Program-made: the position numbers and the translations under genes
Shown here: piece after piece, positions 2,917 through 19,919 of the stretch
Layout of the letters: each line of letters begins with the position of its first letter
Numbering within the stretch: the first letter of the stretch is position 1
DNA from: Escherichia coli
Lineage (GTDB): Bacteria > Pseudomonadota > Gammaproteobacteria > Enterobacterales > Enterobacteriaceae
Assembly: GCF_024223415.1 (NCBI RefSeq)
Contig: NZ_CP100500.1
Strand: one strand, 5' to 3'
DNA: 64,000 nt
The notes under the pieces: model-generated
What the model was told of the DNA's origin: nothing
Seen by the model: only the letters and a program-made list of their open reading frames with translations
The model's database searches: none

Positions 2917-3111
2917 ATGGACTCCGGATACCAACAGAATACCCCATTAATCTGCCCCCGGAAGTCATCCCGGTGCCTTCTGACATAATCTGTTAATACA
3001 TGAATTATTGCCCTGTTCAGAAAATATTAATTAAAAAATGAAAACCAGTTAACAGAAAAGCCACATGACATAATGTTAAAATTTTATATCGTGCAATAAA
3101 AGGAGAATGTT

Positions 3112-13811: not shown

Positions 13812-15560
13812 CTATAAAAACGCGTCGCAGTCGTCTGTTGTTGTCACGTTGGTTTGCGTAACCCCTTTAATCCTGCGCGTTATATATTCATGTCCGTAAA
13901 CTTTCGCCGCTGGCTTCATGGCCTTGCTGAACTCAGCCACGTTCAGCGGTTTGCTCCTGCCTGCATACGCCATAAACGCCAGATAGACGCGGTAAAGGCT
14001 GTTTCTGGTCGTGTACTTCACGGAATCGCCACCGCCCCCCATCATCAGGCCACGTGCTTCCTCCAGAAAATTCAGGAACTGGCAAAACTCAATAACCGGA
14101 TCCGTTTGCTGCTTTATCGCCAGTGCTTCATCACCGTCACGCTGTTCCAGTAGTAAAGCCCGCGCCTTTTCAGGGTCTGCAAAGTTCGCCAGTAATCGGC
14201 GGATAATGACGGGGATTTCAGCCGCAATCCTTTCCGGTAGCTCCCTGTCTTTTTCAGCCTCACTGACGATATTGTCGAAACGAAAAATCACGCGACGACG
14301 TGCCACACCTCCGGCCCGTTCGGTGAATATCATCGGGTTATTGTTGGTCGCCAGCACCACCGCCCTGATTACAGCCGTGAAACGCTTTTCGTATTTCGGG
14401 TTAATTTCCACGGGGTCACCGCCCGTGATTTTCTTGATGCCCGTTCCTTCGCCTGTATATTTCGGCTGGTCTGCCAGGACGATAAGACGACTCCCGACAA
14501 CCTGCGCACGCCCACCAGCATCATCAAGCGATGTCATCTCAGCGCTTACCGTGTTCTGTTTCCCTGCCAGAAGGCTGGCTATGTGCGTGAATGTACTTTT
14601 ACCGCTCCCGCCGTCTCCGGTGGCCTCAATAAACATCTGCCAGTCGTACCGGTTCGCCATAATCATGTACAGCGCGGCACATATACGCATCATCTTGCGC
14701 GGGTCTTTTCCGGCTGCGTGCTCAAGCCATTTATGAAAGTTTGGCGCGTTATCGCGGATGTTCTCCCCAGGTGCTGGTGGCGTGTACTCAATGCCATTGT
14801 GCGTGGTGATCCAGTTCTCCGGCGTGTGCGGGGAAAATTCCCCCGTTTTCAGGTCAAGCGCACCATTGGCGAACGGCAGCAAATCGCCGGACGGCTCGCC
14901 CATTGGTTCGGCAATAACTTTTAACGCTTCCACGGCGTTATTGATTACGCGCTTGCTGAAAGTGGCCCTGTGCTCTGAATAGATCGCCACCATTTCGCGG
15001 CTCAGTTCCATTGTGCTGACCGGACACCATACCCCGCCGCGCCATACGTGAACGATTTCACTTTCCGGATGCACACAAACGCCATCAAATCGACCAGCAA
15101 GCATCTGTGCGCGCTCACTGTCTGCCATTTGTGCCAGTTGCGTATTTTTCTGCTCCGGCATGGTAAGCCCTGCAGCAATATTTTCACGCTCAGCATTCAG
15201 ATAACGCCGCCAGTTTTCACACTTCTGACCGTGCATTCCTTCGGGGTAAAAATTTGCGTCCTGTACGCCAGCCGCCGCCAGCTTCTGACCAATCGCCTTT
15301 ATCATTACTGGCGCAAGATATCCGGCCCTGAATATACGCACGGATTTTCTGCCTTCCGGCACAATTTGCAGCTTATCCAGTTCGGATAACTGCTGCTCCC
15401 CAAGCCACACAGGAGGCTCATTATCTCCGGCCATACGCGCGTCATGTTCCTGCCATTGTTTCGCGTGTGCCCAGGCATCACTACCCGCAAAAATAATGAC
15501 TTCAGTTCCTTTGTGTTTTATGCCGCGTGACTGCAGTTTTACGTTCGGTGCCAGTTTCAT
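13812..15560 (-). CDS. Replication protein: primase/helicase (P4 alpha-like, P-loop NTPase)
   Basis: 582 aa; Walker A GDGGSGKSTFT; size and position match satellite pri-rep genes. Confidence 0.8.
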   Translation of the reverse strand: MKLAPNVKLQSRGIKHKGTEVIIFAGSDAWAHAKQWQEHDARMAGDNEPPVWLGEQQLSELDKLQIVPEGRKSVRIFRAGYLAPVMIKAIGQKLAAAGVQDANFYPEGMHGQKCENWRRYLNAERENIAAGLTMPEQKNTQLAQMADSERAQMLAGRFDGVCVHPESEIVHVWRGGVWCPVSTMELSREMVAIYSEHRATFSKRVINNAVEALKVIAEPMGEPSGDLLPFANGALDLKTGEFSPHTPENWITTHNGIEYTPPAPGENIRDNAPNFHKWLEHAAGKDPRKMMRICAALYMIMANRYDWQMFIEATGDGGSGKSTFTHIASLLAGKQNTVSAEMTSLDDAGGRAQVVGSRLIVLADQPKYTGEGTGIKKITGGDPVEINPKYEKRFTAVIRAVVLATNNNPMIFTERAGGVARRRVIFRFDNIVSEAEKDRELPERIAAEIPVIIRRLLANFADPEKARALLLEQRDGDEALAIKQQTDPVIEFCQFLNFLEEARGLMMGGGGDSVKYTTRNSLYRVYLAFMAYAGRSKPLNVAEFSKAMKPAAKVYGHEYITRRIKGVTQTNVTTTDDCDAFL

Positions 15561-15856
15561 TTTTTACCCCTGAATCCGTTAATCATGGTTTTCATCTTCT
15601 GAATATTGGCGCGTGCTTTCTCCCTGCTGGTGGGCACGTTACGCGGTACGGCCTGCACAAGAGAAAAATCACGCACAAACTGATAAACAGGCATCACGCA
15701 ATCATATTCGTAACCTTCATGGCGGTAGGTGATGCGCCGTTCTGCCACGCCTTTAATCGTTACCGTACCGCCGTAGTTATCACGGAAAATATCGCCGGGA
15801 CGGATTTCAGGCCGAGTGAGGCCGCTGGCAGTAAAGCCAGAATTTTTCTTTTTCAT
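15557..15856 (-). CDS. Hypothetical protein (99 aa), coupled to the primase gene
   Basis: Stop overlaps the primase start (ATGA). Confidence 0.6.
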   Translation of the reverse strand: MKKKNSGFTASGLTRPEIRPGDIFRDNYGGTVTIKGVAERRITYRHEGYEYDCVMPVYQFVRDFSLVQAVPRNVPTSREKARANIQKMKTMINGFRGKK

Positions 15857-15886
15857 GGTTTTATTTTCCTGTCAGTGATTCCGGCT

Positions 15887-16060
15887 TTATTCCGGCGCGA
15901 ATACAGGCTTCAGAAAAAAAGCCAGAGAACCAATAACCTCATTATTTCTAAGGCGGCATTGCGATTTCACTTTCCCTTTATCCAGGAATATCAAAACGCG
16001 CCCCGTATAATCAGATGGCACATTAAGCACTACAGGTAAGTGCGCTTCATGATTATTCAT
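15887..16060 (-). CDS. Hypothetical small protein (57 aa)
   Basis: Start trimmed to the ATG preceded by AGGAGGTGG; N-terminus MNNHEAHLPVVLNV; start overlaps the stop of the upstream gene. Confidence 0.5.
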   Translation of the reverse strand: MNNHEAHLPVVLNVPSDYTGRVLIFLDKGKVKSQCRLRNNEVIGSLAFFLKPVFAPE

Positions 16061-16340
16061 GGCTAACCACCTCCTGGAATTTTCTTCTGTAACGCGCCTC
16101 TGCCACATATTCAGCATAGTCCGACGCAATATTGAGAATATCGCTACCCGTTCCTGAATGTTCGGCGGTTTCCAGTAAAAAACATGCAGCTTTTACCATG
16201 TCAGCAACACATAACAGCGCAATATCTGTATCTTCCGGTGTGCCATCAAATTCCTGTTTCAGGGCATTAAAACGATCATCACGCATAACCCCATATTCAC
16301 AATCAGCAATCAGGATGGCTTTGGCCTCATTCAGTGCCAT
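16053..16340 (-). CDS. Hypothetical protein; N-terminal extent uncertain (may start at 16496)
   Basis: Only the C-terminal 95-147 codons of the 662-aa track ORF look protein-like (MALNEAKAILIADCEYGVMRDDRFNALKQEFDGTPEDTDIALLCVADMVKAACFLLETAEHS). Confidence 0.4.
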   Translation of the reverse strand: MALNEAKAILIADCEYGVMRDDRFNALKQEFDGTPEDTDIALLCVADMVKAACFLLETAEHSGTGSDILNIASDYAEYVAEARYRRKFQEVVSHE

Positions 16341-16494
16341 ATCAGCGGTAAGCTGTGCGTAGGCCAGCAAATGCGGGATTATTGCCCCTGTATATTCCGG
16401 CTCTCTGATAATGTGGTCGGATGTGTTGATTAAATAGTTTGTGCGAAAAATGCACCTGTAACCATCAGTTAACAACGGATATACAGGGGGGACC

Positions 16495-16665
16495 ATGAAT
16501 GATAAGGGGGTGCCGTTTGATGTGCTCCTGCAAAAGCTGAATGCTGCACGCGCCGCAAGGGAACGTGAGCGCATGAGTAATAACCCTGTCCCTCCTGAAT
16601 TACCTCGCCCTGAACATTTTCCGCTTGAGGATTTCATCAGGGGACGAATCCGAACAAAACGATAA
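16495..16665 (+). CDS. Small protein (56 aa), paralog of the 16909 ORF
   Basis: ATG preceded by a G-rich Shine-Dalgarno; shares the PxxFPLE(D/R)FI motif with ORF 16909..17103; below the track length cutoff. Confidence 0.35.
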   Translation: MNDKGVPFDVLLQKLNAARAARERERMSNNPVPPELPRPEHFPLEDFIRGRIRTKR

Positions 16666-16908
16666 CCGCCGCCGTGATATGAGGCATCACGACGCAATGC
16701 ATTACAGGTGAGCACCATGAACAAATCCATATTATCCCCCACAGTTCTGGACGTAAACACAAAGCAGCGACAGATATTATTACGCGCCGTCATTAAAGCC
16801 AGACACGAGAAATTAAACCAAATCTTAAAATAAGATACGCCGCTACCGCTGTAAGTCTTCATCAGAAACAGAAAACGCCAGAGCAGATGAGCACGGAGGT
16901 AACTCTTT

Positions 16909-17103
16909 ATGAAAATAAACGAATCAGGGGAAATTACCGAAGCCAGCGTGGTACGCCAGCGGAGGCGGGAACGACGGGTACGGCCCCCCGCGCCATCCGA
17001 TAATTTCCCGCTTGAGCGCTTCATCAGTGAACGGCCCCGCATACGCTGGAACGGCACAACCCCATACCCCGAGGAGAGACAGACAAAAAACAAACAGCGA
17101 TGA
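16909..17103 (+). CDS. Small protein (64 aa), paralog of the 16495 ORF
   Basis: GGAGGT Shine-Dalgarno 9 nt upstream; C-terminal FPLERFISERPRIR. Confidence 0.4.
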   Translation: MKINESGEITEASVVRQRRRERRVRPPAPSDNFPLERFISERPRIRWNGTTPYPEERQTKNKQR

Positions 17104-17382
17104 TGAAATCTGGAGGCCAATACCATCACCCAGCCAGTCGGGGATTGCTGGCGGGCTTCCTGTTCGCTGGTGGCCCCGATGGTAATAACGCGTGGTTGTG
17201 CTGTGCTCAGGGCGATAAAACGCCAGATGTATTTATTCAGGTTGTGCGGGTCCCGCCCTTGCGGGTGTGTGGTATGATTTAACATAGCTACCTCGATACG
17301 CTTTCTATCGTTGGTGGTTAGAAGCCCCGTTACTGCTCCAACAGTGCGGGGTTTCGTCGTTTCTGCACCTTTCATCAACAAG

Positions 17383-17434
17383 GTGTTGAACACCAATTTA
17401 AGCCTAGGTGTTAAACACGCCAAGTGTTGAACAC
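17383..17434 (+). promoter_or_regulatory. Three palindromic operator-like sites GTGTT(G/A)AACAC
   Basis: Sites at 17383-17393, 17408-17418 and 17424-17434, about 50 bp upstream of the small gene at 17485. Confidence 0.55.
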
Positions 17435-17484
17435 TTATTTTTTTTCCTGCATACTGCATTTGTTTTTTGTAAGGGGTACACAAC

Positions 17485-17664
17485 ATGGCGACAAAAGCAG
17501 TAAACGCAAAATCACAAACAGTTGCGGCAAGGGTTCCGCATGAAGTTATGAACAATGTTGAGGCGGTAAAAATGCCTGGTGAAAGTACAGGGCAGTTTGT
17601 AACAGCAGCATTAAAGCGAGAAGTTGAATACCGCCAGCGCCGCAAGGCCAAAGAATCAGAATAA
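17485..17664 (+). CDS. Small DNA-binding protein, ribbon-helix-helix-like (59 aa)
   Basis: AAGGGG Shine-Dalgarno; N-terminal strand-like TVAARVPHEVMNNVEAV then a basic helix; downstream of the palindromic operators. Confidence 0.45.
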   Translation: MATKAVNAKSQTVAARVPHEVMNNVEAVKMPGESTGQFVTAALKREVEYRQRRKAKESE

Positions 17665-17712
17665 TCACTATCAGCGCCGTGGTGTGAGGTACTGCGGCGC
17701 ATTGTTTTAAAG

Positions 17713-17913
17713 GTGATAATTATGAATAACCAGGAACTACAAAATAAAGCATTATCAATTATCATGCGCCAGCGTGAGAAAACCCGCAGGGAAATAAATA
17801 AGGCATTAACCCGTACTGAAAATCTTAAAGTTCCTGATAAGTTCGCCCTTGATCCTTTTGTCGAGAAATACCCTCGGCGCTTAAAAGCAAACAAAAACCG
17901 CCCACCTGGCTGA
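17713..17913 (+). CDS. Hypothetical small protein (66 aa)
   Basis: AGGTGA Shine-Dalgarno; basic helical sequence. Confidence 0.4.
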   Translation: MIIMNNQELQNKALSIIMRQREKTRREINKALTRTENLKVPDKFALDPFVEKYPRRLKANKNRPPG

Positions 17914-18051
17914 CAATCCACCAGCAAGCCACCACACTGGACACATTGCCCACCAGCCAGCAAATCGCTATGATGTTCGGGCTTATGTTTAGTGTTTTCC
18001 CATTGGCGACCGCCCCCGGTCGCCTTTGTTTTATGTGTCATATACTCCCCT

Positions 18052-18348
18052 TTACGCTGCCTTGCCTGAATTAATGCGATCCCGGCTTTTAACCCATTCC
18101 ATAACCTCGGACAGCAGCCAACCTACAGAACGCCCACCAAGATTACGGCGAGACGGAAAGCTCCCTTTTTTCTCCAGTTCGTAGCGTGTAGTGCGACACA
18201 CTCCAGTTAACTTACGACATTCATCCTCACGGATTACGCGATCTTCATTTATTTCACGCATACAAAAACCTACATAAAAATTACGTATATAAACTTTTCT
18301 CTTAGCTGTAGATATATGAGATCGGATATTACTTAGATTCTTTTTCAC
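18052..18348 (-). CDS. AlpA-family transcriptional regulator
   Basis: C-terminal TRYELEKKGSFPSRRNLGGRSVGWLLSEVMEWV matches the AlpA pattern; true start may be an internal Met. Confidence 0.7.
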   Translation of the reverse strand: MKKNLSNIRSHISTAKRKVYIRNFYVGFCMREINEDRVIREDECRKLTGVCRTTRYELEKKGSFPSRRNLGGRSVGWLLSEVMEWVKSRDRINSGKAA

Positions 18349-18680
18349 CTCTTAAATTAAAAACACAACCATGCTAAAGGCTTTGTTCGCTAAGGTTCGT
18401 AGAAGCTCGTTAGTGTTTAAAATCGTGTCACGAGTTTTTAAGCGACGCAACAAAAAATGTCGTCATTTGGCATGTCACCTGAATTACCTCATTAAAAACA
18501 AATAGATAAACCATCAGATGTTGGAACAATCAAGAAACAGAGAATAAGAACTCAGAAGAAGACATTTCAATTTTTTTCGATAGTTGACACATATAAAGAG
18601 AAGATATTTGCAGATATTCCCCGATATTCTAAGATCTATTCACGGCTGTAATCTCTTAAAGAAAAAACAGCCGTAATTTG

Positions 18681-19919
18681 TCAAGAATTTTGGGGGTAAA
18701 TTCGCGGGGTCATAACAACGATTTTTTCATCATTGTTCTGGAGAAGCTCGAGACGGTCTACCCATAGATTAAGAGCGTCACGCTTTGCATCGAGATAACG
18801 GGAGTGGTTATAGACGCGTTGCATTCCTGGCATCTGGTGGGCAGTAAGCTGTTCAACAATATGCGGATCCACGCCTAAATCGTTCAGCATGGTTGTAAAT
18901 GTGTGCCGGATGTCGTGCAACGACCAGGGGGCTTGATTAATGCGTCTGTGTGCCGTTCTTCCGTACTCTGCTACGGATGATTGCCCTTTCAGTTCTCCAA
19001 GCAATAAGCCCGTGTGCCTGTTCTGCTCCACCAGCTTCATGACGAACGGCAAGATCGCTTCCGGTATTGGCCTGAATATTGCTACCTTCGTTTTGCTGTG
19101 TTCTTTCGGCACAGTCCAGAGCATTTCTTTAAAATCCCATTCCCGAACCTCGGAGCGTCTTAGCTCAGTGGTACGGCATCCGAAGACAATCAGAAGGCGA
19201 ATTAAAGCGCTGTAGTACGGCGGGAAAATTTTTTCATCCAGTGCGCGGAGTAGCTCGCCAAGCTCCTTGTTTGTTAGCACTCGCTCGCTTATTTCTGCTT
19301 TTTTTCCCACATCACCTACGACCATATCATCAAGAACGTTACTGACGGCGTAGCGACGTTTACGGCAGTACTTAAGCGCCTGTTTGCATACCTGCAACAA
19401 AAAGCCGGCTGATACCGGATTACGCTTAGCAAGCTGGTCAAAACAGGCCAGCCAGTGGCGTAGCTCGCATTTATCCAGCGGCATAGCACCAATCTGGCTG
19501 ATTATGTGCTTATTGATACGGCTTTTCAGTGATTCGTGGTCAGTGCGCTTTTCCTTCGCATACGACTCAAGCCAGTAAGTGAGCGCGTCCTTAACCGTCA
19601 CGGGGGCTAACGCTTCCTGCACTGTGTGATTAAGCTCATGGCGTGGATTTTTCCCCTCCGCCAGCCAGGCGCGACACTGTGCCGCTTTTTCCCTGGCTGC
19701 TTTCAGGCTCAGATCGGGATAGTTGCCCAGTCTCAGGCGTTCCGGTGATACCTGCCTGCCAGTTCCGGCCCTGTAAGTGAAATACCAGGTTAACAGGCCG
19801 CTGGTGGAATGTCTTACGCTAAGATTGCCACCGTCATTAAAAAAGGCGTTTTTTGTGGTTGGTGATCCGCTTAATTTTCGTAAAAGAGTGTCGCTAAGTC
19901 TATGAATTGCGCTGCTCAT
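18681..19919 (-). CDS. int: Tyrosine integrase
   Basis: 412 aa; catalytic region LHDIRHTFTTMLNDLGVDPHIVEQLTAHQMPGMQRVYNHSRY. Confidence 0.9.
   Translation of the reverse strand: MSSAIHRLSDTLLRKLSGSPTTKNAFFNDGGNLSVRHSTSGLLTWYFTYRAGTGRQVSPERLRLGNYPDLSLKAAREKAAQCRAWLAEGKNPRHELNHTVQEALAPVTVKDALTYWLESYAKEKRTDHESLKSRINKHIISQIGAMPLDKCELRHWLACFDQLAKRNPVSAGFLLQVCKQALKYCRKRRYAVSNVLDDMVVGDVGKKAEISERVLTNKELGELLRALDEKIFPPYYSALIRLLIVFGCRTTELRRSEVREWDFKEMLWTVPKEHSKTKVAIFRPIPEAILPFVMKLVEQNRHTGLLLGELKGQSSVAEYGRTAHRRINQAPWSLHDIRHTFTTMLNDLGVDPHIVEQLTAHQMPGMQRVYNHSRYLDAKRDALNLWVDRLELLQNNDEKIVVMTPRIYPQNS

Follow-up and report, generated by a model that had tools for sequence, protein, structure and literature searches.

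The window analysed here is a stretch of 64,000 nucleotides (nt) from Escherichia coli (assembly GCF_024223415.1, contig NZ_CP100500.1). It holds an island with the layout of the phage-inducible chromosomal islands (PICIs) of Gram-negative bacteria, in which the minus strand carries one unusually long open reading frame (ORF) directly after an alpA-type regulator gene (Table 1). This frame runs for 1,989 nt from an ATG, through 662 sense codons, to a stop. The ATG lies 10 nt past the alpA stop codon, at a minus-strand junction that reads TAA-AGGGGAG-TAT-ATG and contains a strong Shine-Dalgarno (SD) sequence. On the opposite strand the frame faces two small genes, A1 and A2, with a control region and terminator-like hairpins, and three further small ORFs (B1, B2 and B3) within a segment termed the B block. 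The frame had been noticed in a reading of the letters alone, without database searches (the sequence-only reading), as a stop-free stretch spanning exactly from the alpA stop to the replication genes. The open frame was borne out, as was its alpA side. The replication side is only approximate, because a 57-amino-acid (aa) gene and a DUF4222 gene precede the D5-type primase. The frame ends at 16053 and its last codons overlap the ATG (16058-16060) of the 57-aa gene, as would be expected for a translationally coupled chain leading toward the DUF4222 gene and the primase.

The 662-codon frame is a composite and not one ordinary protein. Its protein-family matches are confined to two stretches, residues 229-313 and 541-661, and a Pfam search of the whole frame returned no match. 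The first stretch is an Icd-like gene with its own SD and ATG, which matches NF033153 (51.3 bits against a cutoff of 25, residues 271-312) and phrog_6196 (E=2.9e-44, residues 229-313). The name Icd (inhibition of host cell division) is given by homology to the Icd protein of P1, and the function here is putative. In ordinary relatives icd is a separate gene of 67-68 aa that ends in ...ARIRQEVCHVQ, with a stop that runs into the start of a 154-aa phrog_2512 gene. In the window the usual last eight or so codons and the stop are missing, and there is no stop before the icd start either; only the domain belongs to the family, which is otherwise a stand-alone small protein of about 67-103 aa with its own start and stop. 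The second stretch matches phrog_2512 (E=6.7e-49) over profile positions 32-153 of 154, leaving the first 31 unmatched. Its usual N-terminal 36 aa or so are swapped for B-block sequence, and the 77-aa phrog_24341 version is matched in full. DNA homology to relatives is lost at 17101 and regained at 16397, and the frame reaches 662 codons because the B block joins icd to the phrog_2512 homologue in frame. The remaining residues face the other strand: residues 1-228 run antisense, in order, to a terminator, A2, a hairpin, A1 and the control region, and residues 314 to about 515 run antisense to the B block. The earlier view that most of the translation is not protein-like was right, and the C-terminal 120-147 codons or so are indeed a real gene part (phrog_2512). 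The view that only the last 95-147 codons look real was not, since the Icd-like gene at residues about 253-313, with its SD and ATG, had been overlooked.

Table 1. Features of the stop-free frame, the opposite strand and the neighbouring genes, in window coordinates
Feature	Position	Strand	Details
Stop-free composite 'bridge' frame	16053..18041	minus	ATG to TAA; from ORF listing and translation
SD and ATG of the frame	18045-18051; 18039-18041	minus	AGGGGAG
Icd-like gene core	17103..17285	minus	aa 253-313; own SD GAGG 17291-17294, ATG 17283-17285
phrog_2512 / phrog_24341 homologue	16056..16421	minus	C-terminal 121 residues, aa 541-661
Terminator-like hairpin	18005..18034	plus	GGCGACCGCCCCCGGTCGCC then TTTGTTTTAT; ends the A1-A2 unit; no U-tract in the minus-strand reading
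A2	17722..17913	plus	63-aa basic protein; WP_001064590.1; C-terminal F-x-L-[ED]-x-F motif
12-bp hairpin between A1 and A2	17674..17700	plus	followed by ATTGTTTTAA; attenuator or terminator-like; paralogous copy 16670-16694
A1	17485..17664	plus	59 aa; YlcI/YnfO family; NF041551, 59.7 bits; phrog_949
Divergent control region inside the frame	17364..17484		121 bp
B block	16398..17100		about 700 bp; replaces the icd stop and the first 36 or so codons of the next gene
B3	16909-17103	plus
B2	16717-16833	plus	truncated remnant
B1	16495-16665	plus
Decayed motif copy in the B block	16846-16865		reads P-L-stop-V-F-I
alpA-type regulator	18052..18348	minus	PF05930, E=4.8e-16; TAA at 18052-18054; directly upstream of the frame
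phrog_340 small gene	15887..16060	minus	57 aa; ATG 16058-16060
DUF4222 gene	15557-15856	minus
D5-type primase	13812-15560	minus
Integrase	18681-19919	minus

Passive antisense 'shadow' ORFs opposite real genes are known in the gene-finding literature, and the frame resembles them in being a long stop-free run opposite conserved genes, with a Cys/Arg/Ser-rich translation that is not protein-like and is mis-called. It could accordingly be a by-product of the plus-gene codons and their shared phase, helped by lucky spacers and inflated by callers that favour long ORFs. The plus ORFs do share one phase, and they encode basic proteins with few Tyr, His and Gln residues. All five of them, and not four as had been counted, start at a coordinate that leaves 1 when divided by 3, and the third codon positions of the minus frame coincide with theirs. 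The sequence-only reading had offered this shared frame as a partial explanation of the missing stops, an account that failed: the 285 codons of the plus ORFs should face about 10 stops at the rate of control genes, and about 5 after synonymous shuffling, and none is seen. In the same antisense phase, 36 ordinary genes of the window have a stop every 28 codons, with a median longest run of 87 codons. The maximum of 246 codons is a point in favour of a shadow; the phase itself is not the most permissive antisense phase in these genes.

The estimate that such a frame is very unlikely by chance was upheld by these control genes and by nulls in which the plus-strand proteins were held fixed. When the codons of the five plus ORFs were reshuffled synonymously, all were open on the antisense strand in 0.66% of trials, and in 0.37% with island codon usage. 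Shuffling of the five spacers left all of them open in 0.015% of trials. The codons of the sense genes thus do not explain the openness (P=0.004-0.007 for the genes, 1.5e-4 for the spacers). The plus ORFs contain 22 risky codons of the TA* or CA* type, and in no case (0/22) does the base before the codon complete a stop on the antisense strand. Stop depletion is limited to one of the three antisense phases, the other two having 15 and 11 stops across the same plus ORFs against 0 in this one. Across lineages 6.1 stop-creating synonymous choices are expected in 25 informative contexts and 0 are observed (P=7e-4, or P=6e-3 when each alignment column is counted once). On these statistics the openness is neither chance nor a passive by-product, and reflects phase-specific selection against stops.

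Stops in close relatives that retain the plus-strand ORFs had been named as what would speak against the frame. The outcome was the opposite: in every relative examined the plus genes are conserved and the frame across them is open. The first three relatives (E. coli 042 and two further genomes) have a frame in phase with icd that extends 331-361 codons upstream of it, almost to alpA. In the protein database, hundreds of contigs carry 'Icd-like' proteins of 360-520 aa, with a mosaic content that differs wholly between islands. As a search of this kind favours long ORFs, 56 IMG/VR loci were instead seeded on the plus-strand A1 protein. All 56 have, across A1, an open run of 171-552 codons in the minus phase with coinciding third positions, and the other two minus phases close within 9-96 codons; this holds also for A1 lineages at 53-68% identity. 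Three of these loci (L034, L043 and L045) have a stop in the operator region. All three have T7 in place of a T8 tract, which changes the length of the putative promoter spacer and closes the frame; the difference could be slipped-strand variation or a read error.

Individual islands extend this picture. EcCICFT073 has a 433-codon frame in the same layout. In a Pantoea island a 351-codon frame, again in this phase, crosses an unrelated opposite-strand gene that encodes a protein like the ribbon-helix-helix (RHH) type and has inverted repeats of its own beside it. The Edwardsiella frame has 239 codons and stops 15 nt before the SD-ATG of icd. One E. coli island (L070) has four plus-strand paralogues in a row and a single 623-codon frame across all of them. 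In L007 a second cassette is bridged separately, by a frame of 227 codons that shares 30 nt with the first. Outside the islands, in the lambdoid prophages of K-12, the same phase is open across ylcI/ynfO, which again fits a shadow, but it closes about 25-50 nt past the gene. A scan of genome contigs with an Icd alignment and strict peptide patterns returned 2 loci, and a test of spacer indel lengths had 5 gap events only.

The ends of the frame also recur. An SD-preceded start near the frame beginning is found in 27 of 41 distinct upstream architectures, usually at -8 to +19 nt from the upstream stop, and the start 'MTHKTKAT...' with its SD-ATG is found in many relatives 6-10 nt past the stop of the upstream gene. 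Downstream, the frame enters icd in phase or stops on or just before the SD of icd, and the later genes overlap stop and start. The frame thus differs from shadow ORFs in several respects. Its openness is not explained by sense codons; it keeps one register through several genes with their spacers and operators; it is found again in every lineage, also with unrelated sense genes; and it has coupling signals at both ends. It is kept open in diverged relatives (the 56 loci, CFT073, 042, Pantoea, Edwardsiella and L070), and in the window it survives across the decayed B2. Although annotation by homology does propagate ORFs of this kind, a passive shadow is quite improbable and already disfavoured.

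The question of which strand carries protein information could not be settled by the periodicity scoring that had been proposed earlier, because both frames share their third positions and periodicity cannot tell the strands apart. It was replaced by a transversion-class test and by a coding-versus-shadow codon score. For the first, polymorphisms at the shared third sites were pooled over A1 and the A2-like genes and counted as context-groups. Transversions that are silent on both strands were polymorphic in 26/90 context-groups (rate 0.29). Those that alter only the minus-frame residue were polymorphic in 21/85 (rate 0.25, p=0.61 against the silent class), and those that alter the plus-strand protein in 7/112 (rate 0.06, p=1.7e-5). 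Depletion is thus seen only for changes to the plus proteins, and therefore the A1/A2 proteins are under purifying selection and the minus-frame residues opposite them are without detectable constraint. Antiparallel overlapping pairs of protein-coding genes are known, and the frame shares with them that opposite-strand frames cover the same DNA with coinciding third positions. The frame departs from such pairs, in which both frames are under amino-acid purifying selection, in that this selection is found in the plus genes only and the minus frame shows stop avoidance only.

The codon score, with tables learned from the control genes of the window and calibrated on windows of 40-145 codons, took up the suggestion that codon usage be scored. 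The minus frame is shadow-like opposite A2 (-0.28), A1 (-0.23) and B1 (-0.31). It is coding-like in the tail that follows alpA (17914-18041, +0.59), in icd (+0.22) and in the phrog_2512 part (+0.57). On the plus strand A2 is coding-like (+0.26), and B2 and B3 score below the coding range.

These results bear on the view that only the minus strand codes and that the small plus-strand ORFs are spurious. Published maps show the islands as transcribed unidirectionally, and Gram-negative PICIs are described as having no known repressor (PMC6092414). B2 and B3 fail the codon test, and no called homologue of B3 was found. Against this, A1 belongs to a curated family that is also present in lambdoid prophages without a long antisense frame, and A1 and the A2-like genes are under purifying selection on the plus reading. 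A1 also has a confident small-protein model, and A1 and A2 come with SDs, a -10-like element, operator repeats that co-vary with A1, and plus-strand intrinsic terminators. That the minus strand alone codes is hardly credible. Of the five small genes originally listed, A1 and A2 have good support as genes, B1 and B3 are less sure but plausible as members of the family, and B2 is a remnant.

The plus-strand cassette has the features of a regulatory unit. A1 is probably an RHH-type DNA binder, as judged from its AlphaFold2 (AF2) model (predicted local distance difference test score, pLDDT, of 85), which has an extended N-terminus and two helices. Comparison with the PDB gave a CopG-family RHH profile match at E=1.1, and the top Foldseek hit was the SeqA N-domain at E about 4; both are suggestive hints that fall short of significance. 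The control region contains three palindromes of the GTGTTNAACAC type, namely GTGTTGAACAC at 17383-17393, GTGTTAAACAC at 17408-17418 and GTGTTGAACAC again at 17424-17434. A -35-like TTGAAC (17427-17432) overlaps the last of these. A 17-nt spacer, which holds the T8 tract (17438-17445), separates it from a -10-like CATACT (17450-17455), beyond which lies the A1 SD, AAGGGG (17471-17476). The -35 and -10 elements were assigned by eye from the sequence and from conservation across lineages; a simple promoter scan called no plus-strand promoter for A1. The repeats vary with the A1 lineage (GTGTTGAACAC three times, TGTCAGCCAC twice, or TCAGACA/TGTCTGA) beside a constant (C/T)ATACT in loci L007-L062, some 120 nt upstream of position 3001 of each. 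This variation beside a constant -10-like element suggests co-variation of a putative repressor with its operator, of the kind seen in immunity systems, and A1 is accordingly a candidate repressor.

An SD is present before every plus ORF. Only two strong terminator-like hairpins lie in the region, one past A1 and one past A2; both are on the plus strand and lack U-tracts when read on the minus strand. A2, the A2-like proteins, B1, B3 and the four genes of L070 (2067-3056 of that locus) have in common a basic stretch with the F-x-L-[ED]-x-F motif after it. Proteins with this motif are basic and 56-82 aa long, and occur singly or in tandem arrays of up to four, always opposite the strand of the island operon. 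Gene callers often hide their genes owing to a preference for the long antisense frame. In Edwardsiella hoshinae NBRC 105699 (L005, 3131-3301) residues 1-57 of A1 are identical to those of the E. coli A1, which points to a recent exchange of the module between genera.

A further possibility is that the frame is a genuine long Icd-like protein, read as one product. Hundreds of contigs carry called proteins of this type, and in ECOR61 transposon suppressors fell in such a gene, the removal of which abolished the phenotype (bioRxiv 10.1101/2023.04.06.535777). The ECOR61 frame is very probably of the same kind, in the same kind of island with primase-linked genes, and it is the only experimental handle. 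It was read there as one protein, whereas the extension in the window is antisense to conserved plus genes and unconstrained in sequence; transposon insertions would, moreover, also strike A1/A2 or act polarly. The good SD-ATG and the coding-like scores of the tail and of 16666-17102 agree with a long protein, as does the hydrophobic stretch opposite A1, in which many substitutions could be accommodated. No amino-acid constraint was detected opposite A1/A2, however, unlike in the plus proteins, and codon usage there resembles that of a shadow. Several lineages have, just before the SD-ATG of icd, a stop that parts the upstream 'extension' from it (L008, L012, L049, L058, L005 and L053-type loci). 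The mosaic content is wholly different between islands, the frame crosses operators, promoters and terminator hairpins, and no family match was found beyond the two known small genes. A long protein is unlikely on this evidence, if still to be taken seriously. The earlier caution that a real large protein might exist therefore stands for a translated product of some kind, but not for a conventional 662-aa protein, given the unconstrained residues and the stops before icd.

The explanation that we prefer, at about an even chance, is that the frame is an unusually long 'bridge', kept open on the alpA strand of E. coli-type PICIs for ribosome read-through. From its SD-ATG by the alpA stop it would carry ribosomes antisense through the A1/A2 cassette, the operator-like palindromes and two plus-strand terminators, and then in phase into the Icd-like gene; in the window it would continue through the B block to the end of the phrog_2512 homologue. 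Selection keeps the phase free of stops and does not act on the residues encoded opposite the plus genes; the passage of ribosomes would be what matters. When a helper phage induces alpA, ribosomes would reinitiate past the alpA gene and stay on the transcript for some 0.7-1.3 kb over opposite-strand information. Their cover could spare the message from an untranslated antisense state, exposed to Rho termination or to pairing with plus-strand transcripts, and translation would keep the chain of overlapping small genes coupled down to the primase. Convergent transcription might at the same time interfere with the A1 cassette as a candidate repressor module. The frame is presumably translated, and its products may include both a short Icd that starts at the icd SD-ATG and longer fusions. 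Opposite A1 the minus-strand RNA has C-rich, G-poor windows that would fit, weakly, possible Rho entry sites. A narrower version is offered tentatively, as a possibility that falls somewhat short of even: a 'ribosome bridge' selected for translatability and not for its product, within a convergent-transcription switch that sets alpA against a hidden RHH-like regulator.

The geometry agrees with an anti-polarity leader, in that the frame lies upstream of the presumably controlled genes on the same transcript. In EcCICFT073, AlpA has been reported to activate its own promoter and an 'ORF3' reporter (PMC6092414). c1487 (428 aa), listed third among the ORFs in the original annotation of CFT073, is precisely this frame, and is probably the ORF3 of that reporter. 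The frame can be assigned to no single family; it is akin to leader ORFs in which translation matters and the product does not, or to overlapping antisense frames. A limited literature search found no description of the antisense arrangement, of the embedded cassette or of openness selected without sequence constraint.

Two older systems offer a likeness. In the immI region of P1 and P7, Biere, Citron and Schuster are said to have found in 1992 that transcription reaches ant only when icd is translated, and that the C4 antisense RNA blocks this translation. As in the proposed bridge, an ORF of the Icd family stands there in leader position, and its translation, not its product, is thought to protect downstream transcription from Rho. 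The frame differs in that 230-660 codons would be translated, over a whole opposite-strand protein-coding cassette, and in that an Rfam search of 15500-18800 gave no match at E<=1 and thus no C4-like RNA. Regulation would act through alpA, and perhaps through an RHH-type protein, instead of a processed antisense RNA. In the satellite P4, Forti et al. reportedly observed in 1999 that translation of the nested kil/eta genes prevents an immunity-specific premature termination. P4 is also a satellite element in which leader translation decides transcription of the replication operon. The island is unlike it in gene content and in the absence of RNA-based immunity, and the P4 leader does not overlap an antisense gene.

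Several points weigh against the bridge. Its translation and the involvement of Rho rest wholly on sequence statistics, and recombination of modules leaves the lineages only partly independent. In the transversion test, icd served as a positive control but had too little power. The minus frame at 16666-17102, opposite B2 and B3, scores +0.22, which lies outside the values of shadows and at the lower limit of those of coding frames, and this stretch may do more than fill space, or may just be neutral. An obvious start is missing from some architectures: the first ATG of BRO-type islands lies 95-112 codons into the frame, and L059 has none. The repressor role proposed for A1 is read from topology and nearby palindromes only. 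In Pseudomonas, AlpA is a processive antiterminator (PMC7969949, PMC9371919). If the island AlpA acts likewise, the transcript might escape termination without being translated, and the open frame would call for another explanation.

The element as a whole has the features of a Gram-negative PICI: an integrase gene, alpA, a primase-type gene and a packaging gene within one small island at a chromosomal att site, laid out as in EcCICFT073. In an identical annotated genome, the genes for SSB, PerC, ProQ/FinO and the small terminase (terS) lie further upstream in the island, which is flanked by cspD/yljB. The Prokaryotic Genome Annotation Pipeline (PGAP) calls the alpA-type gene at 18052-18261, as a helix-turn-helix (HTH) regulator; the A2 accession in Table 1 is also a PGAP call. 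In public annotation the frame appears as an 'Icd-like protein' called from no fewer than five starts (410, 475, 477, 499 and 662 aa), the exact 662-aa product among them. Relatives are annotated with a short icd and 'incomplete' pseudogene fragments. PGAP places such pseudogenes ('Icd-like' or 'hypothetical') on the minus strand opposite an A2-like gene in L002 (3084-3555), L003 (3055-3385) and L004 (3341-3788), and these are evidently a self-propagating artefact of homology to long frames deposited elsewhere. The 154-aa phrog_2512-type gene of L070 is also named 'Icd-like'.

If the bridge reading is true, thousands of 'Icd-like protein' entries of 360-660 aa, with arbitrary starts, and the pseudogenes derived from them mis-describe the locus. 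They would hide a conserved opposite-strand cassette of YlcI/YnfO and FALExF-motif proteins in much-studied phage satellites. The model of Gram-negative PICIs would gain a candidate repressor/operator module and a testable mechanism leading from alpA to replication; on the narrower version, with its convergent-transcription switch, the published unidirectional, repressor-less picture would be overturned. The locus would offer a clear natural case in which, over hundreds of codons, translatability is selected and a product is not. It would also bear on the origin of overlapping antisense frames, on the part that Rho plays in keeping antisense RNA in check and on the reading of transposon insertions in frames of this kind, as in the abortive-infection locus of ECOR61.

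The B block is rare: a search of 5426 complete E. coli genomes found it in 9. The nine copies are at least 99.9% identical and keep the fusion of icd to phrog_2512 intact. The block had no match in phage or plasmid collections, and an exhaustive phmmer search of 1.8e9 representative proteins found no relatives of its proteins apart from B1 itself and bridge ORFs of other islands. The truncated B2 has an intact homologue in gene 1 of L070. Internal direct repeats pair 16670-16724 with 17675-17729, 16534-16560 with 17621-17647, and 16616-16646 with 17003-17033. The pieces common to A and B are a hairpin with SD and ATG, a C-terminal piece of A1 and a motif-coding 31-mer, and they show the block to be a scrambled paralogue of the A1-A2 cassette. 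One draft locus (L010) has a 1-nt insertion in a C-run that closes the frame before phrog_2512. The idea that the fusion is broken in relatives was rejected, as it is intact in complete genomes and L010 is an isolated variant or an assembly error. Two mosaics (P0003, 627 aa, and P0004, 567 aa) carry the same block behind other upstream modules and are still open. Frames of more than 600 codons occur elsewhere too, in L070 and in P0151 (644 aa).

Some smaller variations were recorded among the islands. A BRO-N domain is fused in frame at the N-terminus in P0040, L042, L043 and L047, and BRO ends out of frame, without a nearby start codon, in L017, L021 and L059. An Ash-family (PF10554) segment lies within the long frame between two Icd-like halves in some islands (P0019, P0032 and P0151; L070, 1592-2143). 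In relatives phrog_2512 follows directly after icd, either as a single 154-aa ORF (L004, 2306-2770) or as two overlapping half-size ORFs (L007, 1949-2394; L014; L043). phrog_24341 is the C-terminal half of the split phrog_2512, and small genes of the operon have repeatedly been fused or split through frame changes. In the window the B1 ATG (16495) and an in-frame minus ATG (16494-16496; residue 516, the '147-codon' start) overlap in the palindrome CATG at 16494-16497. The minus ATG has no SD, and the B1 ATG is preceded by GGGGGG.

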